Below, piece after piece: positions 12,318 to 59,661 of a stretch of DNA of 64,000 bases. This DNA comes from a virus. The stretch is taken from positions 43,861-107,860 of the IMG/VR virus record IMGVR_UViG_3300017786_000003; one strand, written 5' to 3'. Under the pieces are notes generated by a model, which saw only the letters and a program-made list of their open reading frames with translations, had not been told where the DNA came from and ran no database searches. How positions within the stretch are numbered: position 1 is the first letter of the stretch; each line of letters opens with the position of its first letter. A program made the position numbers and the translations under genes.

Positions 12318-12619
12318 TTTTTCTTCTTCTTATTCTTTTTCTTATAAGAAGATGTCCATCCCCCTATCTTGTATGGTTGTTTTGATTCAGTACCATCTGC
12401 TCTTTTTGCATTCCTTAAAGCATTGCCTCCCTTTTGCATCTTATTTATTAAAGAGTTAAGAGATACATCTGCTAGGTCTAGTTCACCACCAAGCATTTTA
12501 CCAGATACGTCCATTGATCCTTCTTTAAGCATATCATCTATTGCGGCTGCTTGAGCCCCATGCATTTTAGATGCTTTCTTTAATGCACCAGATATTTCTT
12601 TTAACTTCTTCTTTGCCAT
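12314..12619 (-). CDS. Small basic protein with xxGG linkers
   Basis: MLGG, QKGG, KIGG; Lys-rich ends. Confidence 0.7.
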   Translation of the reverse strand: MAKKKLKEISGALKKASKMHGAQAAAIDDMLKEGSMDVSGKMLGGELDLADVSLNSLINKMQKGGNALRNAKRADGTESKQPYKIGGWTSSYKKKNKKKKK

Positions 12620-17694: not shown

Positions 17695-18099
17695 TTAAAA
17701 TTGTGATTCTCTTTTGCAATCATCAATAGAAAGCTGCAACTCTTCTAGTGTCACTGGACATACAAGATCAAGCCCTGCTTTGAATGCAGCATACTTAAAT
17801 CCATCCTTATCAAATACAATGATTGTTGGAGCCATTCGTACTCTATACTTTTTCTTTGCTTTTAGGTTCTCTGATATATCCGCCCTATAGTATTTTACAC
17901 CTGTTAGTTTTCCCCAGTCCTTAAAAGAGTTATCGTCATTAAATTCTGCCCAAAACTCTACTACAACCAAAACATCTAAATCGTCAAATGCAGAATTACC
18001 TACTACAGACTTTTCAAAATCTTTATCCGTTAACCAATCTTGTCCATTAACTGTAGTACTAAACAGTAAAAAAAAGAAACATAATACTGCTCTTTTCAT
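17695..18099 (-). CDS. Exported thioredoxin-fold protein lacking CxxC
   Basis: Signal peptide ...VNG|QD; VVVEFWAEFN in place of WCxxC; MAPT cis-Pro loop. Confidence 0.75.
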   Translation of the reverse strand: MKRAVLCFFFLLFSTTVNGQDWLTDKDFEKSVVGNSAFDDLDVLVVVEFWAEFNDDNSFKDWGKLTGVKYYRADISENLKAKKKYRVRMAPTIIVFDKDGFKYAAFKAGLDLVCPVTLEELQLSIDDCKRESQF

Positions 18100-34400: not shown

Positions 34401-37400
34401 TCTGTCAATAAAGAATTGATACCAAATACTTGCGTAAAGTATTTAACTATTTCTTCCTTTGGTACCCCTTTAAAGTCACTTAAATCTACCAGATTAAATA
34501 ACTGATCATAAGTAAGATTAACTTGATCAGGTAATGCTACACCTTTAGTATCTGTATATATATTTCTATTATTTGGTAAATATGCAAAAATACCATCTGC
34601 CTGATCGCTTGGTTTAATCCCTGCTCCTTCTAAAACACTATTAATTTTTTCTTTTGTAGTTTGAAAATCTTCTGGACTTGAACCAATAAAGCGTAGACCT
34701 ATTGTATATTTTTCTCTTACTTGTTTAATACTTGAGTTAGCTTCTTTCCCTGGGATAACAAAGTTGTTTCTTTTTTTACCTGCATCTTCATTAAGTTTAA
34801 TTACAAGCTCTAAACTATTTATTTGCTCAGGTGTCAATACAGAAAGGATCAACTTCAGTCTTTGCTTTCCTGTAGCATAATCTGCGTTATCTCTTTCATC
34901 TATATTAATATGTGGATAAAAGCCTAATAAATCTTCTACCGTTAGTCTACTAACATCAGTTGTATATTTAGTTAGGTCTAAAGGTTTTTGTAAAAACTTT
35001 CTTTCTATATTTTCTGCTAATACTTCTTCTGTTTCATCTATCTTATTTTTAGGTGCTACAATGATTGAACCAACTCTAACTGCTTTAGGAGTACTCAATA
35101 CTATATATTCTACACCTGTAATTTTATCAAATAATGATGAACCTTGATTAACTGTAAACCCACCAATTGAATATGATGTAGAATCAGGTGCAGCATCCTC
35201 TAGTTGTTCAAACACTTTTCTTGCTGCAGCCTTAGTCTTGTATGTAGATTCTGGATTATTATTTTCAGGGTCTACTAAAGATCTAAGAGTAGAGCTAATA
35301 GGATTACCTTTTTTATCTGTAACCATATAAAACGCACCAACATCTGGATCAGTTACTTTAACAACATTTACAGTAGAGCCAGATATTAAAATCTCTGTAT
35401 TAGCTTTACCTGCTACTTGTTCACCTGGTTCATTATATTCTATACCAGTATCAAAAATATCATTATAAGATAAATTAGATATAGCTAATACTTGTCCTAC
35501 TAAATCATTCTCACGCCCATCTCTACTATTTAGCCATTCCTGTAATCCTACTTCTGATTGTATATCTTCTGGAGATGCATTTGTTTCATCAGCCCAAATC
35601 TTTTTTATAGCATTAAAGGTGTTTTTATAATTTAATCCTTCTTCTGTGTTTCTCCATTCTTGGAAACCAATCTTTGATTTCTTACTACCTTGTTTCATAG
35701 AAGCTAGCATCTCTGCTTCATATTTTTTATATTGTGTCATTAATAATTCATCCAACATAGGAGAATTATTTTCATTTTCAACAATAACTTCTACTCCACT
35801 TTTGTCTAATACTTCATCTTGTTTTGTTTTATTTTCATCTGCTACTTTTGCAGCCTGCTTTTCTTCTTGAGTTTCAGCCTTAGTAGATTGTGTTTCTGTT
35901 TGTTTTCTATAAGCTTTTAGTTTTTCTTGTATTAGATTCCATGTTACTTCATCTTGTAATGGTGTTACAGATCCATCAGCATTATAAAAAGTTTTAAGTA
36001 CATCAACAACTCCTGTCTGTAAGAATACTTTTGTCTGGTTTATATCAGCATAGATACCTAAAGCTGCTAACTGGTTTAATAACTCATTAGCTTTGACAAC
36101 ACCTACATAATTTTCAATAACACTCTTAAAGTTCTTTTGTATATTTCTGTATGCTTGCTTATTAAACTCAAATGTTCTATCAACAATTTCCTGAAATTTA
36201 GTTGGATCCTGTAAATATTCAATAGCCTTATAGTATGTCTTTGCAGAACCTTTTAAAGCCATATAATCTACCATCATCTTAAGAGCATTTTCTACTTTGG
36301 CTTCATTTATAAAACCGTCAGAAGATTCACTAGCCATAAATCTCATATAATTAAAAAACTCTTTTCTTAGTTTCTCTATTTTACGTCTATCAAAAGCACC
36401 CTTTCTGCCACCTTTAGTACTAGTAGCATTTTTCGGGTCAGTTACAATCTTATAGATAGCTTGTAACCTTTTCATTCTTTCATTCTTAGATTTTATTTCT
36501 GCTCTTGCTGCTGAGGTAGCACCAATAGGAACACCTTTGTTATCTCTTTGAAGGTTGCCATTTTCATCTTGCTTTATATCACTATTGTTTATTTCAGCAA
36601 GCAACAAGTTAATTTCTTTTTGAATGCTTGCAGGATCTAATAATACGGTAATATCTTTTGCTGCCATATTTTGAAACAGAGGCTCTTGAGACAAGTTACT
36701 AAATATGGAGTCAGCTCTTTTTAATGCTGCACTAAAACTATCTTGTGTAAATAAATATAAATACCTTGCATGCTCATATCCCATGTAGGCTAATGTTTCT
36801 TTTATATACTCTCTACTACCTGGTTTAAATGATTTTGGATCATGCGGGTTTTGATATCTGTCCTTTGCTTCATTATAAAAATCTTGTGTCTCACCAATTT
36901 GATTAATCATTTTTTGCAACCTGTGTCTGAGCTTCCCGTTTTTTATATCTTTTTTAGTTGATGGAAAAGCTTCTGCAAGTTCTTCATCAGAAAGATTCAT
37001 AAAATCTTTAAGTTGTTCTTGAAAATAGAAAGAACTTTGGTTATTCATTATAGTATAAATCTGCTGAAACTTAGCATAGTCTTGTTTATTTTTAAAATTA
37101 AACATGTCATCTTGAAACATGTCCTCCTTCATTCCATCTTTTATTTGCTTTTGTATTAAGAAGTTAAACTTAGTTGGATCAAACATTGAGTTAGGATCAT
37201 TTATTTGATTGTTCCATGCTGTATTATGCACCTCAACCAACTTACTAATCATATCTTCTTCTGCTTGTTTTAGATCTTTGTATGCTTGAGGATCATTAAT
37301 TCTTTGATATATAGCAGGTACACCTTGGAAAAATAATTTTTGTGGTCCTTGTACTACTCCACCCATTAAGAATCCAGACATAAAAACATCAAACCCTTCT

Positions 37401-39100
37401 TCTGAAAATTGTGAGCCTATAGCAGAGTTGACCATTTCTTTTTGTAGCTCAAATCCTCCTGCCATTGGATCTCTAGTTACAGCAGTAAAGTACCCTGTAG
37501 TTGCAGCAGATATTGCTTCTTGTGTAACCTCTTGAATACCTTCAGAAATATTAGCAGCAAAATATCTTAGTGTAGCACCTGCAGCCATTCCTGCATTACC
37601 TTTTATACCACCTGCTTTTACTTTATTTAACCAACCTGAAAAACCTTTACCAGCATCACTAAATGGACTTTCATTAAAACCTCCTGATTTTTTTCTAGTT
37701 GGTTTACTTTTAATTAACCTTCTTCCTATTCCTCTATATGAATCATTAAACATTCTGCCAATAGATCTATTAAATCCACCCAGTGCATTGCCTAATACAA
37801 ATTTGTTACTTAAGTATATAACAGGAACATTAGCTAATGTAGTTGCAAATGCACCTTTAGCTGCTTTTTCAGATATAGAGGCCATATCACCTTCTTGGAT
37901 TTCTCCAAAGTTTTGTGCAGCTGTTATACTAGAAAGTTCATTAATTAATTTATTGTAAACCATTCCGCCTTCTAGCTTACCTTCTGCAAGAGCGTAGTTT
38001 AGAGCTCTTATGTCTCTATAGAATCCTCCAAATAATGAAGATCCTTTTCCCATATTAAATACATTTTGGGTTCCGTTCTTTGCTGTTTTAAGTTTACGTA
38101 TAGCATACATAGTTTCTGGAGCTATAAAATCTAAAAACATATTTGTTCCTCTCCCTAATCCTTGAGTACCATAATATACATCTTTTGCATTACCAACGTT
38201 ATTAAGGCTTTTCATCATGTTTCTAGTGCCTTTAAATAACTTAGTACCGGTAAACACATTACCAATCTTTCTTAAAATATTTGCTTGACCTATTGCCCAA
38301 GCTCCTGCTGCTGGTATAGCACCAACACCAGTTGAAGCAGCCGCTGCAGCACCTAACGTTAAAGCTAGTTCTTCAACAGCAATAGACCCAATTATACCAA
38401 ATGTATAACCACTGTTTAATAATAAGTTATTAGTCCATGCTAATGCACCGTCTCTAGTAGAATTACCAATAGCCATAGCATCTTCAAATTCTCTAGCAGA
38501 TTCTACATCTGCACCAGAAAAGTCTCCTGTAAATATATCTCCCATAGATCTATATACACTTTTAAAACCTGCTCCTACAAGACTACCAAATTGACCTCTC
38601 ATTCTAGCCATGTCATCCCATACAGTAGAATTAGCATTATATGATGCTTCTATATTTGAATAAGGAGTATAACCAATATCTGCAAACTTAGGGTGCTCAT
38701 AATATCTCATAAAGTTTCCTGCTCTTATACCAGAGTAAGTAGAATCTACTCTGTTCTGTCCAGGACCTGCATCATATGCTGGAGTGCTGTCAATTCGGTC
38801 AATCCATCTTTGTGCAGGGTTTTGCTGTTTAACAGGGTCATATGTATCTGTAGCTAATGTGGGATCTGGATTTGCCATATTACCATAAGCATTTATAGCA
38901 TACTTATTAATAGATGGTGCATATGCATCAAGTTGCTGTACAGCAGCTATGTTAGCAGTATTAACAAATTGATCAGTTTCAGGTGTTTCAAATAGTTTAT
39001 CTACAGGAACAAACATAAATTGACTAGGAGGTATTACACTACCCTGCCTTTGATTATTCTGTATAGTAGTTTCAAGAGTTGGATTATTTTTCTTTTCCAT
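25403..39100 (-). CDS. Giant virion-packaged DNA-dependent RNA polymerase (crAss-type) with zincin domain, 4565 aa
   Basis: GVRIPSQ...SGADFDIDK catalytic region (~28277-28417), as in phi14:2 gp66-type RNAPs; YHEAFH (32747-32761) with downstream EEYLADEF. Confidence 0.9.
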   Translation of the reverse strand: MEKKNNPTLETTIQNNQRQGSVIPPSQFMFVPVDKLFETPETDQFVNTANIAAVQQLDAYAPSINKYAINAYGNMANPDPTLATDTYDPVKQQNPAQRWIDRIDSTPAYDAGPGQNRVDSTYSGIRAGNFMRYYEHPKFADIGYTPYSNIEASYNANSTVWDDMARMRGQFGSLVGAGFKSVYRSMGDIFTGDFSGADVESAREFEDAMAIGNSTRDGALAWTNNLLLNSGYTFGIIGSIAVEELALTLGAAAAASTGVGAIPAAGAWAIGQANILRKIGNVFTGTKLFKGTRNMMKSLNNVGNAKDVYYGTQGLGRGTNMFLDFIAPETMYAIRKLKTAKNGTQNVFNMGKGSSLFGGFYRDIRALNYALAEGKLEGGMVYNKLINELSSITAAQNFGEIQEGDMASISEKAAKGAFATTLANVPVIYLSNKFVLGNALGGFNRSIGRMFNDSYRGIGRRLIKSKPTRKKSGGFNESPFSDAGKGFSGWLNKVKAGGIKGNAGMAAGATLRYFAANISEGIQEVTQEAISAATTGYFTAVTRDPMAGGFELQKEMVNSAIGSQFSEEGFDVFMSGFLMGGVVQGPQKLFFQGVPAIYQRINDPQAYKDLKQAEEDMISKLVEVHNTAWNNQINDPNSMFDPTKFNFLIQKQIKDGMKEDMFQDDMFNFKNKQDYAKFQQIYTIMNNQSSFYFQEQLKDFMNLSDEELAEAFPSTKKDIKNGKLRHRLQKMINQIGETQDFYNEAKDRYQNPHDPKSFKPGSREYIKETLAYMGYEHARYLYLFTQDSFSAALKRADSIFSNLSQEPLFQNMAAKDITVLLDPASIQKEINLLLAEINNSDIKQDENGNLQRDNKGVPIGATSAARAEIKSKNERMKRLQAIYKIVTDPKNATSTKGGRKGAFDRRKIEKLRKEFFNYMRFMASESSDGFINEAKVENALKMMVDYMALKGSAKTYYKAIEYLQDPTKFQEIVDRTFEFNKQAYRNIQKNFKSVIENYVGVVKANELLNQLAALGIYADINQTKVFLQTGVVDVLKTFYNADGSVTPLQDEVTWNLIQEKLKAYRKQTETQSTKAETQEEKQAAKVADENKTKQDEVLDKSGVEVIVENENNSPMLDELLMTQYKKYEAEMLASMKQGSKKSKIGFQEWRNTEEGLNYKNTFNAIKKIWADETNASPEDIQSEVGLQEWLNSRDGRENDLVGQVLAISNLSYNDIFDTGIEYNEPGEQVAGKANTEILISGSTVNVVKVTDPDVGAFYMVTDKKGNPISSTLRSLVDPENNNPESTYKTKAAARKVFEQLEDAAPDSTSYSIGGFTVNQGSSLFDKITGVEYIVLSTPKAVRVGSIIVAPKNKIDETEEVLAENIERKFLQKPLDLTKYTTDVSRLTVEDLLGFYPHINIDERDNADYATGKQRLKLILSVLTPEQINSLELVIKLNEDAGKKRNNFVIPGKEANSSIKQVREKYTIGLRFIGSSPEDFQTTKEKINSVLEGAGIKPSDQADGIFAYLPNNRNIYTDTKGVALPDQVNLTYDQLFNLVDLSDFKGVPKEEIVKYFTQVFGINSLLTEFIDRTFEGDVFTLNAKQLPYGMSFSLQGVKLDMQKGILNSFDTLQYNTSDNSGGLIIYDIQAGTVVPVTNKKTLAEQKKLREEVKAGLEKSGQWSEMVEQSKGNSSGIRQNSDRYRAAVLLPNGTYVLVPLKARSYTPQQMNDLAISLITKAQEVQKNNKYPKQFNIDLENSLFISFAQGYDLELKVDKFGKVQLLKYNKLTKERTFYELDKDEVNKVEEGLTPAKKLSNLIEKFNNDEVNKEIKFKGKTVVLGSKNFREHLPRNTDVNTIINNTTTPVANNVIVPQKLLLNASSQSVLQALQLTKVINSVNTQTEDAPEQDVSVPRAPASSTVFVELEEISDQDFADYKDEGFASVPVEYINKIVQKRVAGEELTERETELESARITEITLLVNSKQKQGIDTSEIENPTNEVASLSDVIIELDKLKEELTQGVPFKEKGKVLRESKKYQNLLKLRKKLDKGANKVVRDTSELKPEDIEDINTFTTWAEGALPDFITTADIETLGNNLKAGGVRVGAFVMVLKEIAGELKINGTIYTGANSPFKYHEAFHGVFRMLLTDEQINQYIGIAKKEVRAKLRSEGKSLEIELQKFKNSADTYANMTRAELEREYYEEYLADEFEKFKMNPKSTKTNSIIKSFFNRIMEWIKSVLGAKTELASLDSLFESIDAGKFKGASLVRNQFTADMQVGIASEANALVPYAEITQNGVKGNLYLSNNIANPLIHGIAAHYIQAERKAASEGPYSPREVMNEVLDNFRNLYNIENPINAERSDIQKQRLTEISLAFDRFEDVIQEQVFEYLNIINGQLVDAVYNEEYFSDITGIRSASQFDTDASNIGGINSIPGFLRAYLATTTVTEQDYFGNTILVEGEPLIVPVNFNEAYNGILKSVKNLTAPIDILKSLYLFGQSNVNSGAVIDRILLDTFGEINPQAILDGSALSLPIKDPLLLQQIIKGFSNFRVEYIFTEIDQQGNSLVYSAAQRDDINSQMDRWAQAFLYKQEKLISDKKRKNQAVDAIQDLYDAISLNSETETDEVLSNKAKELSEQIYQYVGIRFSPLYLKYNFIAAKSTDALKPSQIALLNLNPNGQRLVLEDIEQMSRQIQRNQDIFDTGEMGMNSRLRAMAESNAMFDETIGASVFRNANGDLVYAHQNGTYHLTSIAELNDPNNIQRKLEDPALENNYLLNDPAFLKLSLTNRLKVLRVAGLKQKDRITGEDISGNVLGTDTYGDFSPRQFLSTLLNNYTANVNTKSGKVSTVEYLDEEGNTQERAIASVLIRVMEASNTGDQIDLPVIKAVELVGNEVKLTEEAVDIIVNNIRNEFARINREFNPDTATKDTVGGYNTEGGRAYTFFNTGVLLSEELKNKLISIAKLQGEQGNTITLDQALENAAGMTALRKVVVDNLENQVTEFKEVIESENASDLISKKVKQGLVRAQGFSTPDLQRSNELLNLTDNFDYNLKQIFVNDYINTFSINEILLGDQATSLKDPVDKIKRAKMQNASYYNAYSAFPSPDQGVLHSVEKISLISFTEPQGVSSFSNASIDKADAQMYMTTKAFRYLWFGMGLLKPEQVELLDHLDVGLEPITGNRVFGYDNKAGLAKAQALINSKKLVYGDGKTYLKMSAFVLTKDYTSDWNADKGVWVAKPNRVELHNLRVKMEAQEAREQTISIAAPVSAVKMEKRNVVDISEFNNETELKSEQFTDLDARYMGLQVVSPSNKMDIVDMSQIKELVTSEQDDSVKVEGLKNPDGTTMTIADVRKAYSDALSNRVLFKYKNRRNLVFDFQTAMDEFTLSKKDNVITPKLAAFLRYATAGLKASQASSNLLEFFADDAGISYNLNNAISVRKAESLFMSYFSRGVLAERVPGVTVNLVSDYGNKVYRRVYEFDENGLPLRSEIIRQKQWEAMSTKPEIFESTNDTDSNKPQSWLGVDPGKDGVVILDRLRSGLMEYTDPKDPESLTGQRYTEFMMPAHDKDVMEMIEDKVDASMPSVISKFFGVRIPSQDKHSSVNMKLVDFMPVYYGSSAMFAQELIETSGADFDIDKVFALMKEYYIKDGQFVEYGKEASLTEEYNAYINYVNEKVTKPGTIYSESLEQYKDNAVKPEHQLSDAEVDLVTIPDGPVSEESRKALMMLGLPVTKAQYAKYKEDHGFPYEAPYNNEVLDYRYALVGNRGMTESSTGIPIAYSPANDNIVKTTLDVLAGKSQVFSDRLQEDNVDVDNLLGKTKAFKSNKGASIGAVVLPNLYLSLLTESKKKLDWDFWLKSNKLVNGAFELDGIKYDSFAESTEVGGLQRKQDTLSALISIAVDNAKDRYISKLGLSKPAMSVMANMIALGVPLEVATLFINLPVIQDAFNARVDSGIKLTTYAEKILRSDEYKSIKSTKLTKELMYDFIDGNLVDSQDVTKSALEELIKISGLVEVTSKMGAITSLTKGLPSSIVELNNLKRTIQELKTQGLISVSDLYNDTWRGTYVNIVNQLTDVLLPEVFISSTKPFVGMYTKLLDGMDIPVTPEITKIQNDISLNIVSYLTLQAYLHNALQTDGQLAATLSNSFVYPQPVIDGQSVQSIISVVQDLQKRESLADNFFLQNFVLLLSADNSNNKTGMNLAQANTFRNLSSSQKIDLQTSFAQLYNTIETRKSAEAIINYIMVKDGLELGYASLLEAISPYTLNTYLNQVNNVQKALNGKATFESVFGLSQADLEKTLLDNYLLSTSSQEYVKTIYQGGPAQERRSLPEGYSFKDGNLVFNTEENQEKSFAFVRLGNINEFGNIDYFLFTRDLASKKEVVYKRVQPMGSKQQTPIGFIFGDRPTLSENNNFIDRKNAQNYSEENQIDAPVQTTDIAFDPVEEAIKTESSIVEATERSVTVQAAGPESTPVNIADTQEIQQQLFDNQEVMDNDEREALVLKAMEEEYIPSDPGNLDNIVYEQMEFQFEEEVEEQYPDIANEYDRLLENKNNIPILQQEKLFPLDSMIEQYEEMRKINVNLTEEEFKEHLKCLGLN

Positions 39101-42538: not shown

Positions 42539-45500
42539 TTACATTCCCATTTTTCCACTATAAAATGGCATTACCCATTTTTTAATTTTTTTCTCCATAC
42601 CATGTTTACCCTCATCTACTGAGACATTTGATCCAGGATATCCCGGTATACCTCTTGATTGTAACTCTTGCTGTCCATATGTGGTACCTCCAACATTAGG
42701 TAAACCTGAGTGAGTATCCTGATATATTCTATTCTCTATTTCTTTTGTAGGTTGTACACCAGTTATTCTTGTATACTCTGCAATTTTTCTAAAGTATGCT
42801 TGATCAGCATCTTCCTTGTTTTGTTTAAAGAACTGTTTACCTTGGTCAGTAAATTCTATTTTTCCATACTCATCTGGATTTATACCATAATAATCATATA
42901 AACTATTCAAGTTAGCAGTATTAGCTTTATTTGTTTGAGCAGTATTCATTAATTCAACAGCTTTATTTATATAAGCATTATCAAAGTTATCTGCATCTTG
43001 TAGTGCTTTTACCGTACCATCATATGCATTCTGATCAATATCAGCTTGTGCTAAATTAAATTTATAATCTAACTGAGGCTGCATCATTCCTACTTGGTTC
43101 ATTGTTCTAACATTATTCTGATTAACTAAATTAATAGCTTTTGCATTAGCCGCCATTGTTTTACCTTGTATATTACTACGTGCAATCTGTTGCGGTCCAT
43201 AAGTAGACAAAGCCTCAGCCATAGTATTTTGTGCACCTAAGTTTGCATTTATTGCCTGTGTTGGATCATCTAATACATAATCTATAACAGGTCTTTCTAA
43301 TTGTGGAGCATAAGGTAAATATAAATTATCCTCCATCATTCCTAAAGCTCTTAGATTATTTAAATCTTGTTGCCAGAATCTATCAATAGGTGGATCAGCT
43401 TCTTCTATAGGGTTTGGTTCTATTGGATCATCTGGAATATCAAAAAATTGTTCATCATCAGAACCAAAATCTATATCTAATCTTGGTGCATTAAATGTAT
43501 GGAAACCAAATTTACTATCAAAACCTTCTCCTTTTATATAACCTTCACTACCCTTTTCTTTAAAGTAGGGCACATATAACTTATTATATAACTCTTCATT
43601 AAATACTCCATTAGCGTCTGTAGCTAATTTTCTAGCTTCTTCTTGTCTTGTTTTTTCTGCAAGTTTTTGGAACTCACCCCACTGCTTATTATCTCTACCA
43701 GCGTCATAATCAAACCCTTCTATTTGTTCTACTACATCTCCCCATCTTTCCATGAAGTCAGCTTCACCTTCTTCACTCATAAATACACTAGAACCATAAC
43801 TACCTTCACCTGCTTTAAACTGTTTCAATGGTCTTGAACCTTTTGAATATCTGCCGTATCTATACTGACCTATAGGAGAACCTTCAAGTACTTGCCCTTG
43901 TGTCTCTATATCATCTGAGTATATAACAGTTGATCCAGTTCCTTCACCTTCTATTTCTTCTCTTACTCTTTCATGACTTTTATCAAATCTACCTTGATAT
44001 GGTCTGTATGCTCTAAGTCTACCATCAGAAGTTAAACTAAAAGTATATCCTTCTCTTCTATACTTTTCCATTTTATCATAGTTTTCACTACCTTTTGGAA
44101 ATGGATTCTTATAGTTATCTACATTCTCATCAACAGTCTCTTCAACAGTAGATACTACATCTGCTGAGCCTTCAGTATTATCTGATTCTATAATTTCACT
44201 TGTAGAAACAGATAAATCTTCTGGATATGTTGGTTTATTAAATATATCATAATTATCTATATCTGTTAATGCTTTACCATACATTTGTTTTTCTTCATTG
44301 GTTAAGTCATCTAAAAATTTCTTAGGTATTGTACCATCTATACTTCTATGCAAATCTTGTCTAATAACATAATCAATATATTCAGCTCTTCCTACTGGCC
44401 TTCCCTGAATCTCATACATAGAGCTAGTAGTTACTCCAGCACGTGCTCCTGTATTCTCACCACCATCTTGCATCTTTCTAAAATTTGGTAACTCAAAGTT
44501 TTCTGATTGTTCTGGTAACTCACTTAGCTGTAATGATTTAAATAATCTAGTAACAACTGGTTCACTAAATGTAGATTTTTGATCAAAATTTGGTAATTGA
44601 AAATCTACTGATTGACTAGGCAATGAAGATAGATAATTATATTGTGGAGTGTTTGGTACAAAAGGTATTTTATTAGCTCCTGTAATAGCATCTAATTGTG
44701 ATTTTGTAGGCATACCCGGTATTTGTTGTCCAGGAACACCGCCCTGTTGAGCTTTCTTCATAGATTCTTTGATGGCAGCATCTCTTCTTGCTAAATATAC
44801 ATCTTCTCCTTTTGGTCCTCCATATGCTGCTGTTTGCATCATATCCATGTCTGCCTGTGCTAGTTGCATTTGGTCAGCAGGGTTTGGCTGTTGAGGTTGT
44901 ACTGGCATTGCTTCAGCTTGTTGTAACATTGCTTGAAGCATCATAAGTTTTTCTTGTTCTCCTGGAGGCATAGCGTCAATTGTATTTTGTTGTGCTTGTT
45001 GTTGAGATATATTTTCTATTTTTGCTGTAAACTCTAAAGGGTCTACTCCCACACTCAATAAAAAAGGATGTGCTATTAAAGGTACACCTTCTTCAAAATT
45101 CTTTTTATTTTCTTGCATGAATCCTAATTTAGATAAATCCATCATATTTTTCTTTAACATAAGCTCTGCACTTCTTGATGATATGTCATCAGCATATTGA
45201 GAATCTAATTCAGCATAAAAATCATTAATATCAAACTTCTTTGAAATTGCAGCTGGTGTTTTTTTCTTTTTACTTTCAATACCAAACTCTGCCATCTCAT
45301 CTCTATCAAATTTCATCTTTGCTGTATCAGAAAAAATAAATGATTGCTCAGGTAAAAACATAGGTGTTCCCCCTTTAGAGTGTCTTTTACCCCCTATATC
45401 ATATAAACCAAACATACCATCACCTGACAAATCTGTTAGGACTGTTTCTCCACGTTCTGCTTCTACGTTTGCATTTTCTCTAGGTACACTAGATAAACTA

Positions 45501-45700
45501 TATCTAACGTTCTCATCACGTGTATTATTAAAACTAGTTTCTCCATAGTATTCCTGTGGAACTGAAACCAAACCATAATCAGCTTGATCACCAGTAGTAT
45601 ACATATCACCACCAGTACGCATAAATTTGTCTTCTACAACTTTACCGTTTACTAATTTAAATCCTTTAGGTAATTTACCTTTTAGTTTTATTTTTGCCAT
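42539..45700 (-). CDS. Virion cargo protein with xxGG-delimited modules (1053 aa)
   Basis: NVEAERGE..GKRHSKGG..FIFSD domain recalled from crAss-like cargo proteins; RTGG, AYGG, QQGG, QDGG linkers. Confidence 0.75.
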   Translation of the reverse strand: MAKIKLKGKLPKGFKLVNGKVVEDKFMRTGGDMYTTGDQADYGLVSVPQEYYGETSFNNTRDENVRYSLSSVPRENANVEAERGETVLTDLSGDGMFGLYDIGGKRHSKGGTPMFLPEQSFIFSDTAKMKFDRDEMAEFGIESKKKKTPAAISKKFDINDFYAELDSQYADDISSRSAELMLKKNMMDLSKLGFMQENKKNFEEGVPLIAHPFLLSVGVDPLEFTAKIENISQQQAQQNTIDAMPPGEQEKLMMLQAMLQQAEAMPVQPQQPNPADQMQLAQADMDMMQTAAYGGPKGEDVYLARRDAAIKESMKKAQQGGVPGQQIPGMPTKSQLDAITGANKIPFVPNTPQYNYLSSLPSQSVDFQLPNFDQKSTFSEPVVTRLFKSLQLSELPEQSENFELPNFRKMQDGGENTGARAGVTTSSMYEIQGRPVGRAEYIDYVIRQDLHRSIDGTIPKKFLDDLTNEEKQMYGKALTDIDNYDIFNKPTYPEDLSVSTSEIIESDNTEGSADVVSTVEETVDENVDNYKNPFPKGSENYDKMEKYRREGYTFSLTSDGRLRAYRPYQGRFDKSHERVREEIEGEGTGSTVIYSDDIETQGQVLEGSPIGQYRYGRYSKGSRPLKQFKAGEGSYGSSVFMSEEGEADFMERWGDVVEQIEGFDYDAGRDNKQWGEFQKLAEKTRQEEARKLATDANGVFNEELYNKLYVPYFKEKGSEGYIKGEGFDSKFGFHTFNAPRLDIDFGSDDEQFFDIPDDPIEPNPIEEADPPIDRFWQQDLNNLRALGMMEDNLYLPYAPQLERPVIDYVLDDPTQAINANLGAQNTMAEALSTYGPQQIARSNIQGKTMAANAKAINLVNQNNVRTMNQVGMMQPQLDYKFNLAQADIDQNAYDGTVKALQDADNFDNAYINKAVELMNTAQTNKANTANLNSLYDYYGINPDEYGKIEFTDQGKQFFKQNKEDADQAYFRKIAEYTRITGVQPTKEIENRIYQDTHSGLPNVGGTTYGQQELQSRGIPGYPGSNVSVDEGKHGMEKKIKKWVMPFYSGKMGM

Positions 45701-45702
45701 AA

Positions 45703-48700
45703 TTATAACATTTCTATATCAGCTCCCGCTGCAATTAATTTTGCTAATATTGATGAGTCAACATTAACAGTCTCACCACCCTCTTGTCTTCTGGTTCCAG
45801 TTTGTCCTAAATCTAAACCTGAAACAAAGTTTAACGGATATCCTTCAACATCTGAAGATACTGATTGTATTGGTTGTGACTCAATAACAGAAGCTGCAGG
45901 AATGTTGTATTGCTTAAGTAAATTCCTAGCTTCATCTAACTGAGTTTGTATCTTAGGTAGTTGTCCAACATATCTTAAAAATTGTGGATCTTCTCCTCTT
46001 ATTGCATTTGGATCATTTTGATCATATGGCCCATCTACCATTGGAAAATTACCTTCATTAAAATCTAATCTAGTTCCACTATCTGCTTGATATGCGTTAA
46101 ATGTTGGTTGCATCACAGGCATACCATCTTCATCATAAGTACCAGAAGTTGTTTCTTCTCCAGGACCAGAATAAATACCTGTATGATGAGGTCTCCAAGA
46201 TTCTCTATTACTATGCTTTCCTCTATATGTAGTTGGTGCGTAGCTATACATAGATACCATATCACCTAATTCTGCCTCATCATCACTAATTAACTCAAAT
46301 GGTATTGAACCTGCACCAGGAAACTTAGAGCCATAAGCTTTTTCAGTTAAACTATAATTACCACCCAAAGTTGGCATATCATATGCTCCTGCTTGTTGGT
46401 ATGCAAAACAACCATATGGAGTACAATATAATTCATCATCGTTACTACCAGTAGTACCAAGTGTACTATAAGGTGTATCACTACCTGCTCTAGTTTTTGG
46501 TAATGCATCCTTTATCATTTGAGGTAACTTCTCATATGCACTCATCATTTCTTTTCGGCTAGTTGCTAGTTGAAAGTCTCTGTATAATTGGTAATCTTCG
46601 TCAGACATTCCTCCCTCACTTGGACTTAAAAACATCCTATCATCTGCTTGATCCAAAAATTCTGATGTACCTAGTATATTATCTCTTACTTCATTAACTC
46701 TTGTTTCTTCTGTATTATATAAGTTTTTAATGTAATTATAATAAGCACGAGCTGATGCACTATCTTTTACACTTTCACTAGTAAGACTCCCGCCATCTTG
46801 GGCTTTAGCCATTTCTCTTTTTATAACTTTATCTCTATTAGCTAGATAAGCTGCTTCTCCTTTCTCACCACCATATTCAGATACTGAATTCATATATAAA
46901 CCAGTTACATAGTCTGAGTCAGCACCAGTTCTTCCTGTGTTTATATCAGTAGTACCTTTATAATTAAATGGTTGTGTGTATGTATTAAATCTTTCATCTG
47001 CTATTGCACCCATTCTATTATCTACTTGTGCATCAAAAATATCATCTCTTTTAGCAAACTTAGTTAATTCTGGAGCTAACTGAACAGCTACGTCACTTAC
47101 ATCTTCAAAACCTCTCATAAAGTTACTATCCCTAAATCTATTATAAGCTCCTTCTATTCCTCCAGTATTTATATTTATTTCTGGTGGTGTAATTTCATCA
47201 AAAGCAGCTTGAGCTTCAGCTTGAGCCTTTTCTTGCATTCCTTGTTGATTCTGTTCATTTAAAGAATCTAACGTTGCTTGGTTCTGTTGTTGTGCTGGTG
47301 TTGGACCTACTAATGGATTTCTTTGTCTGAATTCTTCATCTTCTACCATTTGCACAGATGTGCTGTAATCTAAAAAAGGTACATTAAAATCAAAGATATC
47401 AGAACTATCTTGTTGTGGAAACATAGCACCTCCATCTTGTTTTTGTGGAAACATTTTTTGTAATGCTTCTAATGTTGCATTACCTACATTACCTAAATTT
47501 TCTTTTTGAGTAGCTGCCCAGTCTTTGAAATCTTTTTGTAAGTTACTAATCATTCTTTCAGTGCCAAGCCCTCCACCTGTAACTGTCTCATTAAAATTAC
47601 CTACATCAATATTAGAAGCAATTTCATTTGCATTTTCTGATGACTTTAGTAAGTCTACATACTTTTGCATTGCAGCCATATTATCTTCAGATAAAAATTC
47701 ATCCATATTCTTTATTGAATACTCTGCATCTTTAAATTTATTAGATCTATTTATATCTTTTTTTGCCTGCCAATCTCTGAATGTTCCATCTTTAACACCA
47801 TCTTTATTTAGATCTTTGCCACTAAACATATCTTCATATCCAGTACGTAGAGTATTAAAAATATTAGCATAGTTGACATCTCCATCTTCAAATGCAACTG
47901 GGTTAATGTAAAATGGCTTAGCATTTATAACATCATAATTATAATTCTTATCAATCTTATACGTTGGGTTTGGGTCTGCAATTGTTCCCATACCACCATA
48001 TTGCATTTGGGGTGCTTGCTCTTTTAATTTTTTTAAACCTGCTCTTCTATATGCATCAAATTTACCAACACCGTTCATATCACGGCTATATGCTCCAGTA
48101 TTAATTGGTACTAAAACATTATCTATTATAGCTTGAACACGTTCTGGATCTTCCAAACCAGTATAAAAATCTGAACCTCTTAAATCTTCTAGGGTCAAAT
48201 TAAGTTGAGTAGTCATATCTATTTCCTCACCACCTTCTTGTTTTTTAAACTTAGCAGCATTACGTGCAAAATTAGCCATTTTTACTACTTCGGTAGAATA
48301 CTTCTCTTTATTAGCTAAAACCTTTCTAGCAGCTTCTTGTACACCCATACCACGTGCCTTAGCCCATTTAGTAAACTTACCTCTATTTTCTTTTTTAATT
48401 TCTATGCCTGATTTAGCATACTCATCTATTACATCTACATTAAGATCAACAGGATCCATTTCACTTTCTACTGATTCATTTCTTGCTAGCTCTTGAGGAT
48501 TTTGATTTACTTGTGCAGGAGTAGCAAGTTCAGGTTGCATTCTTTTAACAACTTCTTGAAAGACCTGTTGTATTTGGACTTCTTCCATACCACCCATCAT
48601 AAGTGCTTGAGCTATAACTTGTTGATCTATTTCTTGTGTAGAAAGTTCTGTTACTACATCAACTATATCTTTTCCTTGTTTAACTGACTCACTAATCATC

Positions 48701-48810
48701 ATAGTAACTTTCTGAATCATAGGATCCGGTTGCTGATTATTTTGCATACCAGGTTGCGTTGGAATCATTTGTCCTCCTTGTTGTTTTAAACTTTTTTTGT
48801 TTAATTGCAT
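45703..48810 (-). CDS. Modular cargo protein with NlpC/P60-like domain and xxGG linkers (1035 aa)
   Basis: Seven (Q/E)xGG linkers; YCTPYG...LGDMV...HHTGIY. Confidence 0.8.
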   Translation of the reverse strand: MQLNKKSLKQQGGQMIPTQPGMQNNQQPDPMIQKVTMMISESVKQGKDIVDVVTELSTQEIDQQVIAQALMMGGMEEVQIQQVFQEVVKRMQPELATPAQVNQNPQELARNESVESEMDPVDLNVDVIDEYAKSGIEIKKENRGKFTKWAKARGMGVQEAARKVLANKEKYSTEVVKMANFARNAAKFKKQEGGEEIDMTTQLNLTLEDLRGSDFYTGLEDPERVQAIIDNVLVPINTGAYSRDMNGVGKFDAYRRAGLKKLKEQAPQMQYGGMGTIADPNPTYKIDKNYNYDVINAKPFYINPVAFEDGDVNYANIFNTLRTGYEDMFSGKDLNKDGVKDGTFRDWQAKKDINRSNKFKDAEYSIKNMDEFLSEDNMAAMQKYVDLLKSSENANEIASNIDVGNFNETVTGGGLGTERMISNLQKDFKDWAATQKENLGNVGNATLEALQKMFPQKQDGGAMFPQQDSSDIFDFNVPFLDYSTSVQMVEDEEFRQRNPLVGPTPAQQQNQATLDSLNEQNQQGMQEKAQAEAQAAFDEITPPEININTGGIEGAYNRFRDSNFMRGFEDVSDVAVQLAPELTKFAKRDDIFDAQVDNRMGAIADERFNTYTQPFNYKGTTDINTGRTGADSDYVTGLYMNSVSEYGGEKGEAAYLANRDKVIKREMAKAQDGGSLTSESVKDSASARAYYNYIKNLYNTEETRVNEVRDNILGTSEFLDQADDRMFLSPSEGGMSDEDYQLYRDFQLATSRKEMMSAYEKLPQMIKDALPKTRAGSDTPYSTLGTTGSNDDELYCTPYGCFAYQQAGAYDMPTLGGNYSLTEKAYGSKFPGAGSIPFELISDDEAELGDMVSMYSYAPTTYRGKHSNRESWRPHHTGIYSGPGEETTSGTYDEDGMPVMQPTFNAYQADSGTRLDFNEGNFPMVDGPYDQNDPNAIRGEDPQFLRYVGQLPKIQTQLDEARNLLKQYNIPAASVIESQPIQSVSSDVEGYPLNFVSGLDLGQTGTRRQEGGETVNVDSSILAKLIAAGADIEML

Positions 48811-48870
48811 GATGATTATATTATAATATTAATATACAAATAATTAGGGAGAATCACTAATCTTTTAGGT

Positions 48871-51648
48871 TTAAGAATTGCCTGCAACATAAGTCATAAT
48901 GTAATTAGCAGGACTCATATTCATAGCTTTAGCATCTCTATAATAAACTCTATTAAGTTTATCATATACTTTTTGACCAATTATTTCTTCTTGTTTTGTT
49001 TTGAAATTACCATTTATATAATGTTTATAAATAGCATGTGGATTACTCATACTTCCACCATCTTGACCTTTAGGTAATGTTTTAATTTTACCGTTCTCAG
49101 TTCTAGCATATCTGTTCTTTTCATTTTCCATGCTAGGAATAAGTGTGCCTGAATAAGTTTTACCTTTCCATTGCCAGCTAACTGATCCACCTTTTTTATA
49201 TTCAGGTCCTTTTACATTTCCATCTTTATCTTTAAAGTATACGTTTTCTGAAAGACCTTCTGTTTCTCCTTGTTTAGTTCTTACATACCCGTCTGGCAAA
49301 AGATTGTTATATGAAAGGTATTTTATAACCTCATCTTTTTTAGAATCATCTATATTTAATGATCCAACAATTGATCCAACATAATTATTAAATGTGTCTT
49401 CTCCCATTTCTAGAAGCTTTGCTAAGAATGGTCTTTCATCTCCGCCAAATATAGTTCTTAACTCATGTCCTACACCTAATAGATTTGAACCTATAAAACC
49501 AGCTGCTTTGTCTACACCAACAGAATCTAATAGTCCACCAACATAAGGTATATCTTTAACTTTTTGTTGTATTGCTTCTGCTGCATATCTACCTCCTGCA
49601 GCATGTCTCATATTATCAATACTATTTTCTTCACCAGGATTCTCAGCAAAAGCTTGAGCTCTATCATTTACATTATCTAAAGATGCATTAATTAATTTTT
49701 CTAGATCAGAAAGAAAACTGGTTTTAGGATTTGACCTCTGAATTGCATTTACATCACCACCTTCTTGAAAACCTAATTTGTCTTTCCAGTAATTTGGTAT
49801 ATTTTTAATACCTTCCATAGAGATGTCTATATTAGGAACATCTATACCTAATTTTTCAATTGCAAATCTATTTGCTTTATCTTTAGCCATATCTAAAAGC
49901 TCAGGTGCCCACTTATCTCTTTCATAAATTACTGTTTTTAATGCAGCTGGTATTGTTCCATCTGGAAGGATATTATATATCTCTTTTGCATCAGAACCTA
50001 CCTGACGTAATCTTTTTGCTGCTTTATCCTGTCTGCGTTCACTGGGCTCATCACCAAAAGGAAGGAAGCCAGATATAACTGTATCAAGATCTTTTAATGT
50101 TTGATCTGTTATGTCACCAATACCCTTATCTTTTATTGCTTCTATTGCTGTAGGATTATGTAATACTGTTTCTACTACATCATTTATTTCATCTCTATCT
50201 AAACCATCTAAATAATTTGTAAGAAGATTAATAGTAGTAGCATTAAGATCTACTTTTGCTTCTTCTTTTACTAATTTTGTTAACCCCTCAAATCTACTTG
50301 TCCTTTTTCCTTTTACACTTCCTGGAACTATTTTATCACTATAATTTTCTAAAATATTATCCATAACAAAATTAGGATCAGTAATACCCCCTCTACTATT
50401 TTCTGGTGAATTAGGATCCATACCTAAAGCCAAACATACCCCAGTAGCACAATTAGAATCTAAAAAGTCATAATTATATATGCTTTCATCCTCCAATGAT
50501 ATAGGAAGTTTTTCTGGTCTCAATCTTACATCATCATGAATAGAACTTCTTTCAGTACCTTCAAATAATTGTGCTTGATTTATAAAACCTTTTATTTCAT
50601 CATCAGATAAATCTAAATCTAAAACTCTTACGTCATCTTTCCCTTTATAATCTCTTTCACTAACACGTTTATTTCCTGAACCAGTTGACCATCTATTTAC
50701 ACGGCCAACTAACTTAGTACCAGGTATTACATTTACTTGATCACCTGTATCAGTATTAATTAGTACAGCTTCAATATGTCCAGGACTAAACTTTTTACTT
50801 CCATAAGGATATTGTATAACTCTTACATTATATTTTGAATAATCTATATCATTAATTCCTTTAGATCTTTCTGGGTCACCACCGTCTTGTAACTGACTTG
50901 CTTTGGAACCTTTGTTTATTGTTTTAGCTGCCAACTTAGCCTGGAGAGGAGTTACACCTTTAATTGCTTTGAGGGGTTTAGCAAAAGGTATTATACTTAA
51001 TGCATTTAGTGCTGCGTTACTATAATCACCACTATCTAAACTATCAGCTGATTTATACGCAGCATTAATTGGATTAAAAAAATCTATTGCACTTGTAAAA
51101 GAATCTTTTTCAACTTGTCCAGCATCTATACCCTTATCAAAATTATATGGTACATTTCCAGTATTAAATTTTTCTTTAATAGTTGCAAAAGGATATCTAA
51201 CAAATGATCTTATGTCACTTTTAAAATTATCAAGCATGCTAGGTGCTTGTGTTATTGTACCTCCTTGTTGAAATTGTTCTGGTTGTTCTAACTCAGGTTG
51301 CATTCTATAGTTAGTAGTAAGTTCTTCTCCTTCTTTTAAATCTTTCAATGCATATACAAATCTTTGATCACCTACCTTTTTACTCATCATAGTTGGTGAT
51401 TCTTCATTATGATTATGCATCTTACCTAACTGAGTAACAGGTTGTCCACCTTTATGTGCTAAACCTATTAGCTCACCCTGTTTAAAAGATCTTCCTGCAA
51501 ACATACCATCTCCTTCTATATCAGAAGGGGCTTGAAATATATCACTCATAGGTGCATTAGAACTAAACACACCAGTTACATAGGTAAACATTTCATTAGG
51601 TCCACCAGGTAATCCTCGTCTTTCTTTCTCTTCAAAATATTCTTTCAT
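48871..51648 (-). CDS. Modular protein: SET domain, permuted papain-like peptidase, DUF6973-like domain and small beta module (925 aa)
   Basis: SDIEGDGMFA..GELI..HNH..ALKDLKEGEELTTNY; PGHI...YDFLDSNC; DNMRHA..GHE..EDTFNNYVG; five (Q/K)xGG linkers. Confidence 0.82.
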   Translation of the reverse strand: MKEYFEEKERRGLPGGPNEMFTYVTGVFSSNAPMSDIFQAPSDIEGDGMFAGRSFKQGELIGLAHKGGQPVTQLGKMHNHNEESPTMMSKKVGDQRFVYALKDLKEGEELTTNYRMQPELEQPEQFQQGGTITQAPSMLDNFKSDIRSFVRYPFATIKEKFNTGNVPYNFDKGIDAGQVEKDSFTSAIDFFNPINAAYKSADSLDSGDYSNAALNALSIIPFAKPLKAIKGVTPLQAKLAAKTINKGSKASQLQDGGDPERSKGINDIDYSKYNVRVIQYPYGSKKFSPGHIEAVLINTDTGDQVNVIPGTKLVGRVNRWSTGSGNKRVSERDYKGKDDVRVLDLDLSDDEIKGFINQAQLFEGTERSSIHDDVRLRPEKLPISLEDESIYNYDFLDSNCATGVCLALGMDPNSPENSRGGITDPNFVMDNILENYSDKIVPGSVKGKRTSRFEGLTKLVKEEAKVDLNATTINLLTNYLDGLDRDEINDVVETVLHNPTAIEAIKDKGIGDITDQTLKDLDTVISGFLPFGDEPSERRQDKAAKRLRQVGSDAKEIYNILPDGTIPAALKTVIYERDKWAPELLDMAKDKANRFAIEKLGIDVPNIDISMEGIKNIPNYWKDKLGFQEGGDVNAIQRSNPKTSFLSDLEKLINASLDNVNDRAQAFAENPGEENSIDNMRHAAGGRYAAEAIQQKVKDIPYVGGLLDSVGVDKAAGFIGSNLLGVGHELRTIFGGDERPFLAKLLEMGEDTFNNYVGSIVGSLNIDDSKKDEVIKYLSYNNLLPDGYVRTKQGETEGLSENVYFKDKDGNVKGPEYKKGGSVSWQWKGKTYSGTLIPSMENEKNRYARTENGKIKTLPKGQDGGSMSNPHAIYKHYINGNFKTKQEEIIGQKVYDKLNRVYYRDAKAMNMSPANYIMTYVAGNS

Positions 51649-58021: not shown

Positions 58022-58990
58022 TTAACAGGTTGCACTGGTTGATGATTGACTTGTTGTAGAGTCATTAGGATTTACAGTAAATTTTTCTGGCAAAGGAGCA
58101 ACTGGATTATTAGGAGCATAGCTCAAGAACATATTATAATAGTTATGATATTGTGCTCTTCTATTTACTTCCCACATTTTTCTCATTTCTGCAAAGTTTG
58201 GTGTATTAACAAATGTTAATGCATTGTTTCTTGCTCCTCTTAGTTTCTGTGATACTAAATTTAATTGCTGAGAAACGTTCTCACCGTTCCATACCATATT
58301 TTCAAGTATTCTTTCTTTAACTGCATATTCATAATATTCATTACAATAAGGATGATCTAATACTAATAAATCTCCATATGCATCTTCCATAGCACCCTGA
58401 TAACTTATATAAACTTTTCCTGTTCTAAATGTTGTAACTAAAAATCCATCTCTAACTTCAGCTATATCTAATGCTTGTGCACCTAATGTAGGACAAAAAC
58501 AAACAGCATCATTTACATCTTGAATTCTTAATTGAGTCCAACTATCAAATTGTCTATATTGATGTGGTCCTACTCTTTGAACTAACTGGTAACTGTTTTT
58601 ATCATCACAAGTTTTAATAACACATACATCTTTACAGGTGTCATCTTTACTGCATGGTGACATTTCTCCAGGAGAAGGAACATAAGGTACTTCATTAAAT
58701 GTTTCAATATGTGTACCAGATGGCATTGTTGCATTAACTGTATAGCTGCCACATCTAAATGCATAATTTATATATTTGAAATCCATAGGTAATTGCCCTC
58801 TACCATGTTCTATATCAATTATGACCTGCTTAGTTCTGTGAATTCTTAAACCTAAATCATAATTAACTCTTTGAGCAACTTTAATTAATTGCTGTGGCTC
58901 AATCATTCCTTCCAATGCATAGGTTGAAAAATCAATGGAAACATCTTCCATTAATTGACTGAATGTTCTATATTTTTGTGATACTCCCAT
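58022..58990 (-). CDS. Putative tail ring/tubular (adaptor) protein
   Basis: LPMDFKYI, VYISYQG..D..G; synteny with crAss-like tail genes. Confidence 0.65.
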   Translation of the reverse strand: MGVSQKYRTFSQLMEDVSIDFSTYALEGMIEPQQLIKVAQRVNYDLGLRIHRTKQVIIDIEHGRGQLPMDFKYINYAFRCGSYTVNATMPSGTHIETFNEVPYVPSPGEMSPCSKDDTCKDVCVIKTCDDKNSYQLVQRVGPHQYRQFDSWTQLRIQDVNDAVCFCPTLGAQALDIAEVRDGFLVTTFRTGKVYISYQGAMEDAYGDLLVLDHPYCNEYYEYAVKERILENMVWNGENVSQQLNLVSQKLRGARNNALTFVNTPNFAEMRKMWEVNRRAQYHNYYNMFLSYAPNNPVAPLPEKFTVNPNDSTTSQSSTSATC

Positions 58991-59661
58991 TATCTATTAA
59001 TATTTATTTTATTATCAGAATCCTCTGGCGGAACTTGCATAGTATTCATCATAGTCTGTATTACTTGAGCTTCTATTTCTGCAAATAATGCTTCAGGTAT
59101 ATATATTTCTTGATCATACCTAGGTATACAGTTATTTGTATCATCACAGTCCCAATTAGTTATATCTGAATCAAATACTCCTTCTAATTTTAAAGCATCC
59201 CATTCAATATTTGGTGCATATATATAACCATCTAACCACCAAAAATATAATGTTTTATTATATTTAAAAGTTGTAGTTTTAGTCATAGAAGTAAAAGTAC
59301 CCGGCTGAGTAGCTTGAAGTTCTTTTGATCCATCTATAGAGCTTACAGTACGTATTAGAGGTCCCCAGTATCCTTCAAACATAGAAGGTAGTTTCTTTTT
59401 AGATCTTTTGATTGTACATCCACTTGTTATACCTGCACAGTGTGCCTCTACTTTATCTACATCAATTAATTCAATATATGGTAATGTTTTCCAAACTGAA
59501 TTAAATTTCATTAGTTTATTGGCATAATCTTGTCTTCTCATTAATACTTGAGCGTACTTCTCTATTAGGCTGTATATATATCTATCAGTTACAAATGCAT
59601 CTTGTACTTCTGCTTTTACTTGACCTCTGATTCTAGATATTGCTTCTGATATTTTTGACAT
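58990..59661 (-). CDS. Putative tail ring/tubular protein
   Basis: RSKKKLP, YFWWLDGYIY, EGVF; synteny. Confidence 0.65.
   Translation of the reverse strand: MSKISEAISRIRGQVKAEVQDAFVTDRYIYSLIEKYAQVLMRRQDYANKLMKFNSVWKTLPYIELIDVDKVEAHCAGITSGCTIKRSKKKLPSMFEGYWGPLIRTVSSIDGSKELQATQPGTFTSMTKTTTFKYNKTLYFWWLDGYIYAPNIEWDALKLEGVFDSDITNWDCDDTNNCIPRYDQEIYIPEALFAEIEAQVIQTMMNTMQVPPEDSDNKININR

Follow-up and report, generated by a model that had tools for sequence, protein, structure and literature searches.

The window analysed here makes up the right-hand 64 kb of a viral contig of 107,860 bp (IMG/VR record IMGVR_UViG_3300017786_000003; genome estimated 94% complete). It carries three consecutive genes for proteins of about 1000 amino acids (aa), P0003 (925 aa, 48871–51648), P0002 (1035 aa, 45703–48810) and P0001 (1053 aa, 42539–45700), in which short motifs ending in Gly-Gly, below called seams, separate unrelated modules. 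Coordinates are window positions, and all genes and features for which they are given lie on the minus strand. The virus is a crAss-like phage, with Crass_capsid and P22-like portal families in the genome part beyond the window (Pfam scan), and more precisely a marine crAss-like phage, the homologues of the three proteins stemming chiefly from marine metagenomes.

The genes CrAss_Ring_1 (58022–58990) and CrAss_Ring_2 (58990–59661) lie upstream of the trio. They are followed by the gene of a 2118-aa virion protein (phrog_37948) in the muzzle position, the trio itself, a 1119-aa gene and the gene of a 4565-aa RNA polymerase (RNAP) protein. The leaders of these genes are A/T-rich, and a Shine-Dalgarno (SD)-like leader was found in no window gene. 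An earlier note on this DNA had placed three consecutive genes of about 1000 aa among virion cargo genes, between muzzle and RNAP. Open reading frames (ORFs) of 925, 1035 and 1053 aa are indeed present and the slot is right, but the fourth, 1119-aa gene separates them from the RNAP gene. Their position fits the crAss cargo block; judging from this synteny with crAss001, the three proteins are most likely packed into the particle and injected.

GenBank phages gave no DNA-level match to the locus and no tblastn match to P0001, and P0002 had a single match there, a 41-aa module in phage cr127_1. A PDB sequence search with P0001, P0002 and P0003 returned zero matches. As a single sequence, P0002 retrieved no relatives from IMG/VR, whereas an alignment-based query did recover them. 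The P0001 family comprises more than 1600 cluster representatives.

Enrichment and consensus of the Gly-Gly seams

The seam pattern is real. All motifs listed in the earlier note were found in the proteins named there (16/16), and the proposed enrichment was borne out. Relative to each protein's own composition, QxGG was observed 12 times in the three cargo proteins (1.20 expected) and Q[QDE]GG 11 times (0.26 expected, Poisson p 6.7e-15), i.e., far above background, while plain GG was mildly enriched (31 vs 21.5 expected). Q[QDE]GG is found in none of the other window ORFs of at least 150 aa. QxGG, which had been called rare in the RNAP and 1906-aa proteins, has a count of zero in both the 4565-aa and the 1906-aa protein. 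Across 80 related IMG/VR loci, QxGG frequencies per 1000 aa were 2.46 for the P0002-like gene and 1.03 for the gene preceding it, compared with 0.08 for RNAP and 0.31 for the gene in the muzzle position.

The consensus seam reads K-[KMF]-Q-[EDQ]-G-G-[ES]. With the second Gly counted as P1, 1311 distinct GG contexts from 213 homologues show the following preferences: P6, Lys; P5, Lys, Met or Phe; P4, Gln (4.8-fold enriched), otherwise Lys or Glu; P3, Glu, Asp, Gln, Lys or Tyr; P1', Glu (3.3-fold enriched) or Ser. Gln occupies P4 in only about one quarter of these contexts, and Pro, Leu and others are seen at P1'. In full-length P0002 homologues of 35–90% identity, G193/G194, G550/G551, G647/G648 and G1011/G1012 are invariant, and whole-module insertions in P0002 homologues start directly after GG.

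Microbial transglutaminase favours Gln in flexible hydrophobic-Q-G contexts. This counts for an alternative in which the Gln, with nearby Lys, is a modification or cross-link site (transglutaminase-type isopeptide or deamidation) tethering cargo to cargo or to the particle. The enrichment of Gln at P4 and of Lys at P5/P6 as well as papain/transglutaminase-fold modules in the cassette agree with it. Nevertheless, we regard cross-linking as improbable, given that three quarters of the contexts do without Gln at P4 and that the papain-fold modules are rare payload.

The seam Gly codons vary (GGT, GGA, GGC, GGG). As they vary and SD sequences are not used, we conclude that selection acts on the peptide and not on DNA or translation starts. 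A signal at the DNA or translation level, i.e., GG codons serving as internal SD sites or recombination hot spots with the peptide as a by-product, would agree with a Met one to three residues behind GG at 5/16 seams. It would also agree with the database gene calls that begin P0002 at Met15, just past KQQGG-Q (P0004, 1021 aa, and likewise P0006; region 48769–48810). Met is, however, not enriched after GG family-wide, and the 13 N-terminal residues of P0002, MQLNKKSLKQQGG, are conserved at the protein level in distant homologues, including relatives that lack the internal Met. The long form of P0002 is therefore probably real. Codon variation and leaders devoid of SD sequences led us to reject internal SD sites, internal starts and DNA recombination signals, and we consider a DNA-level origin of the seams highly improbable.

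GG can also form the very C-terminus in the P0001 family: P0219, P0221 and P0236 terminate with ...PFYTGKMGG, compared with ...PFYSGKMGM in P0001.

Modules and homology breakpoints

AlphaFold models of P0003 and P0002 had mean pLDDT (predicted local distance difference test) values of 51–52 overall, yet contained confident domains. P0003 consists of a SET module, a linker, a TseH-like hydrolase, a helical region and a universal C-terminal module; its confident domains are SET (35–124), a second domain (259–363 and 400–508) and the C-terminal module (869–922). Three seams fall exactly at the edges of these modelled domains, namely FQQGG (aa 126–130, 51259–51273) immediately behind the SET domain, LQDGG (aa 253–257, 50878–50892) just ahead of the TseH-like domain with confident structure from aa 259, and GQDGG (aa 861–865, 49054–49068) with confident structure from aa 869. 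FQEGG (aa 627–631, 49756–49770) lies in a low-confidence region, and YKKGG (aa 817–821, 49186–49200) opens the universal C-terminal module. Among 40 homologues, G864/G865 are nearly invariant.

The SET module (aa 35–126, 51271–51546) is a member of the SET-domain methyltransferase family. PF00856 scored 23.6 bits against a curated cut-off of 22.4, and SET fold matches comprised vSET (3kma), MLL1 (7w6a, Z 10.9, root-mean-square deviation 3.3, 86 aligned residues) and EZH2, with Z of 10–11. It opens a presumed injected protein. The second module (aa 259–510, 50119–50874) is assigned by its fold matches as a permuted papain-like (TseH/YiiX/RID-like) Cys-hydrolase. Residues 269–449 matched TseH (6v98, Z 7.4, 132 aligned), the MARTX RID domain (5xn7, Z 7.2) and YiiX (2if6, Z 6.8), and the Atlas lead for this module, TseH/IcsB, agrees with these matches. 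Relatives of P0003 carry SLT, LysM, ART-PolyVal, Amidase_2 and YkuD domains.

In P0002, conserved N-terminal modules are followed by a variable middle, an NlpC/P60 payload and a conserved C-terminal tail. The seam KQQGG (aa 9–13, 48772–48786) ends the conserved 13-aa N-terminal peptide. A KGKFT/DUF3008-like helical module (aa 133–194, 48229–48414; phrog_20603), of which residues 136–188 resemble residues 376–423 of crAss001 gp45 (BLASTP E 0.002), is closed by KQEGG (aa 190–194, 48229–48243) with the invariant G193/G194, and module insertions in relatives begin right behind it. MQYGG (aa 269–273, 47992–48006; pLDDT below 50) and KQDGG (aa 457–461, 47428–47442) are located in linkers. A 26-aa helix unit, EKGEAAYLANRDKVIKREMAKAQ, together with the SEYGG before it and the DGG behind it (aa 644–674, 46789–46881), forms a mobile mini-module that also occurs in P0001. 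The NlpC/P60-like peptidoglycan hydrolase module (aa 776–975, 45886–46485) had zero matches in a Pfam scan; it was tentatively assigned from a consistent series of NlpC/P60/CHAP fold matches to residues ~700–950 (Z 5.4–6.9), and all of 8 homologues retain C796 and H876. Finally, RQEGG (aa 1008–1012, 45775–45789) precedes the 23-aa C-terminal tail ETVNVDSSILAKLIAAGADIEML (45706–45774).

All P0002 QxGG sites (13, 194, 273, 461, 674, 1012) and SEYGG lie in segments with pLDDT below 50, while LMMGG, PSEGG and PTLGG are loops within domains in the AlphaFold model. The QxGG sites of P0003 likewise have pLDDT below 50, so that in both models they occupy low-confidence stretches bordering domains. The models hence place the seam-class sites outside folded domains, in keeping with the earlier note, which had put the module boundaries at GG.

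P0001 has a conserved N-terminal unit and core domain, a variable middle and a conserved C-terminal domain. Its 31-aa N-terminal unit MAKIKLKGKLPKGFKLVNGKVVEDKFMRTGG (45608–45700) is closed by G30/G31, which are invariant in 40 homologues and end a conserved unit of the form MAKIKINKLPxGFxLxDGKVV...M-x-x-GG. AAYGG, a helix unit and AQQGG (aa 291–321, 44738–44830) make up a paralogue of the P0002 helix unit, and a further seam, MQDGG, is found at aa 410–414 (44459–44473).

We compared the ends of sequence homology with seam positions. Of the internal ends of BLAST alignments between non-identical homologues, 14.1% lay no more than 2 residues from [QEK]xGG, vs 2.5% of random positions, with the mode exactly at the second Gly. 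In an independent set of 194 viral-contig proteins, the corresponding values were 8.7% vs 1.7%; the controls DG, GS and single G gave 0.8–1.3-fold in this set. Homology breakpoints at seams are hence 5–6 times above random, and relatives gain and lose modules exactly at GG, as had been anticipated. Gly-rich linkers are common, and the enrichment of plain GG is mild, as would be expected if the seams were chance occurrences or generic linkers devoid of specific function. This explanation is scarcely credible in view of the p value of ~7e-15 for Q[QDE]GG, the positional preferences, the invariance down to homologues of 35% identity and the control motifs, which show no breakpoint enrichment.

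Conserved handles and variable payload

A module census was made over 58 related loci with full flanks. P0001 32–293 and P0003 821–925 were found in 58/58 loci, P0001 761–1053 in 56/58, the C-terminal tail of P0002 in 54/58 and P0002 1–130 in 47/58. SET was present in 23/58 and the TseH-like module in 3/58, and P0002 675–775 as well as the NlpC/P60 module in 0/58. The cargo proteins thus combine conserved handles with a variable payload that is inserted at the seams. As the end modules are near-universal and the payload is rare, the payload relies on being covalently attached to the handles. The description as strings of unrelated modules is thus apt, with SET, TseH-like and NlpC/P60 folds and with modules that occur independently in relatives. 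The units are also modular, as the term interchangeable small effectors had implied, but that term fits only in part: several GG-bounded units are peptides of 13–31 aa and hence too small for enzymes.

The ends of P0002 and P0001 meet in a conserved junction. The P0001-like start lies exactly 2 nucleotides past the P0002-like stop (45698–45705; 74/75 relatives), and conservation of the flanking nucleotides is strong. In 74/75 loci, the gene ahead of the P0001 homologue encodes the C-terminus ...LIAAGADIE[IMK]L (two variants: ...AGADISFL). The P0002 tail is terminal in 97/97 occurrences, and neither it nor the P0001 N-terminal element occurs internally. This arrangement suggests translational coupling, and consecutive cargo proteins may perhaps associate head-to-tail. 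A complex prediction for P0001 1–295 with the P0002 tail (985–1035) scored 0.04, which is no evidence on binding in either direction. A frameshift fusion of P0002 and P0001 is unlikely, as there is no conserved slippery site and the P0001 frame is closed 4–6 codons upstream in most loci; with the downstream frame closed in this way, the junction looks like coupling rather than fusion.

The trio fits the known class of polyvalent and crAss cargo proteins. In crAss001, gp45 (C1) and gp46 (C2) (PMC10172136; PDB 7QOG, 7QOI, 7QOJ, 7QOL, 8CKB) occupy the same slot from muzzle to virion RNAP genes. Moreover, gp45 has a basic N-terminal peptide ended by GG (FDTGG), GG sites beside two resolved segments and a KGKFT module like P0002 136–188. 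PF25725 (crAss_CARG1, the portal-bound domain of gp45) was not matched anywhere in the genome at E <= 10, and a hidden Markov model of the P0001 N-domain did not match gp45; kinship with crAss_CARG1 is hinted at solely by an Atlas feature lead (0.91). Unlike in crAss001, there are three proteins here, with an enzymatic payload (SET and two hydrolases), a Gln-rich motif and a conserved C-terminal tail that is coupled to the gene following it.

Polyvalent proteins (PMC5512222) are similar in combining unrelated catalytic and binding domains per polypeptide in a block that is, here presumably, virion-delivered, and in their mosaicism; a putative zincin motif (HEAFH) is also located nearby. Two or more disparate domains per polypeptide, as is characteristic of this class, are found in P0003 (SET and TseH-like) and in P0002 (NlpC/P60 and KGKFT). 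Iyer et al. 2017 (PMC5512222) proposed zincin processing, and the words 'glycine' and 'linker' have 0 occurrences in their text. Their description includes neither a conserved junction motif nor a layout of handles and payload, and in this the trio differs. We found no description of the motif in Bayfield 2023 (PMC10172136), in Iyer 2017 or in full-text literature searches, and both motif and layout are apparently undescribed.

In guts and oceans, crAss-like phages belong to the most abundant viruses. A conserved junction peptide at every module boundary in hundreds of uncultured relatives provides a rule for parsing large orphan proteins. The seams also offer a testable handle on cargo packaging and ejection, and they map the presumed injected payload, in which a SET-domain methyltransferase is unusual for a phage.

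Cut or uncut seams

Adenovirus adenain cuts (M/I/L)XGG↓X, African swine fever virus (ASFV) pS273R processes pp220/pp62, and C39 peptidases process double-glycine leaders. The cargo trio resembles these systems in that a short GG-ending motif recurs along presumed virion-internal proteins, small basic ones included. It differs from them in that a cognate cysteine protease was not detected and that the hydrophobic residue is at P5, not P4; unlike in adenain-type systems, cleavage is also contradicted at one crAss001 site.

The earlier note had proposed polyproteins cut at GG. This reading of the seams is not supported, as a GG-type or prohead protease was not found and a resolved gp45 segment spans a seam. 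Pfam scans of all ORFs of at least 100 aa beyond the cargo block did not list peptidase C5, C48, C39, C57 or prohead protease, and PF05903 (deSUMOylating PPPDE) had no match in the genome (107.9 kb). As candidates for the GG protease, the two Cys-hydrolase modules were rejected; they are missing from 55–58 of the 58 related loci and, as relatives keep the seams without them, they cannot be the seam enzyme. The sole candidate phage protease adjoining the cargo genes is the 4565-aa fused giant protein (25403–39100). It combines a zincin motif, HEAFH (aa 2114, 32747–32761), with the crAss RNAP motif DFDID (aa 3603, 28280–28294), although a Pfam scan gave zero matches, the HEAFH motif notwithstanding. 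It has the 'huge polyprotein' form of Drobysheva et al. (10.1101/2020.03.07.982082), in which zincin and DFDxD RNAP are fused, and it lacks seam enrichment. These authors consider RNAP-block fusions of crAss-like phages 'likely cleaved', a statement that covers the RNAP block and not the cargo proteins.

GG sites of crAss001 gp45 are found at residues 20/21, 209/210, 263–265, 332/333, 373/374, 427/428 and 562/563. Two gp45 segments were resolved by cryo-electron microscopy, 214–245 and 425–552 (PMC10172136). They adjoin the sites 209/210, 427/428 and 562/563, and since the segment 425–552 includes A425-F426-G427-G428-W429, the chain is continuous through the 427/428 seam, as taken from the published residue ranges and not from coordinates. 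In that study, gp45 is modelled as a single chain of 90.8 kDa that bridges tail and capsid (PMC10172136). Two crAss001 papers do not mention proteolysis, and one of them, Bayfield 2023 (PMC10172136), has no mention of cleavage or a protease. An uncut gp45 would yield seam-spanning tryptic peptides such as GKMPPNIFDTGGQSWGQQSSGQFSNAFK or GLMNTSGGNR. In a peptide-mass fingerprint of published crAss001 gel bands (PMC6235969 supplement), gp45 stayed at decoy level in bands 1–10. For the known proteins, the assignments were clean, with gp50 and gp47 in band 3, gp49 (with gp44) in band 4, gp20 in band 5, gp26 and gp22 in band 6, gp22 and gp25 in band 7, gp25 in band 8 and gp23 in band 9.

We favour an uncut hinge or docking seam over a protease site and give this reading a probability of roughly one half. 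The alternative already named in the earlier note, a tag for packaging, comes closer to it than cleavage does. The seam motif would stop the preceding helix and provide a flexible hinge, and it is probably also a short recognition or docking element. Modules could then fold and unfold independently, with the chain stored partly extended in capsid and tail, threaded via the portal and the tail, and folded again once inside the host. The conserved end modules would act as handles, with exchangeable payload between them. Recombinants joined at seams, i.e., outside folded domains, would survive and give rise to the observed mosaicism. We infer both the packaging and ejection of the chains and a hinge or docking role of seams that would stay intact. 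The handle-plus-payload layout demands that the payload remain attached at least until packaging, and any cutting would have to come after it.

Several points weigh against uncut seams. A non-prime-side specificity ending in GG has the appearance of a protease site, and seams close the N-terminal peptides of 13 and 31 aa and precede the 23-aa C-terminal tail in a propeptide-like manner. Three to four seams within ~100 aa of small basic proteins recall the cleaved adenovirus core proteins. A SET module with a cytoplasmic target and wall hydrolases with a periplasmic target would be simpler to accommodate if separated. In addition, crAss001 is a distant relative with an aromatic-x-GG seam flavour, and a docking partner for the seams was not found.

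Polyprotein processing would be cleavage after GG in the filled capsid or post-ejection, e.g., by a host enzyme or by the zincin in the 4565-aa giant, and would free effectors and peptides. It has several features in its favour: the logo specificity from P6 to P1' ending in GG, the propeptide-like N-terminal units, the small basic proteins with several sites and the disparate module activities. It can also draw on HEAFH in the neighbouring giant protein and on the zincin processing proposed for crAss RNAP polyproteins (10.1101/2020.03.07.982082) and polyvalent proteins (PMC5512222). However, clan CE, C39, C97 and prohead protease families were not found in the genome (estimated to be 94% complete), nearly all seam-keeping relatives lack the Cys-hydrolase modules, P1' tolerates Pro and Leu, and P4 is variable. 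Furthermore, gp45 segment 425–552 runs across a GG seam, both crAss001 papers are silent on proteolysis, and the 4565-aa polyprotein is itself devoid of seam enrichment. Processing is hence possible but rather unlikely. Slightly more doubtful still is its full form, in which a zincin or host protease acts at the seams after packaging or ejection and frees variable enzymes and basic peptides, as a phage counterpart of adenovirus and ASFV maturation for effector delivery. If the seams were cut, they would define a new phage polyprotein system.

The two small basic proteins are encoded elsewhere in the window, among tail-fibre and holin genes. Both are very basic and contain 3–4 [KM]xGG sites each. 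The 137-aa protein (10168–10581) has KQKGG, DMGG, MQEGG and YKKGG seams followed by a Lys/Arg-rich tail, and the 101-aa protein (12314–12619) has MLGG, MQKGG and KIGG. Pfam and PHROG searches with both gave zero matches. The 10168–10581 product belongs to a widespread marine-phage family (..KKGG-xVKKKKKQGYNxRLDESLGMR..), of which longer members have 6–8 such sites.

Two further ORFs, 17695–18099 and 18391–19599, have signal-peptide-like N-termini (MKRAVLCFFFLLFSTTVNG and MRKYFLVLVCMLSYTTLLAQ, respectively), and a thioredoxin-like Pfam match was recorded in the ORF batch that contains both.

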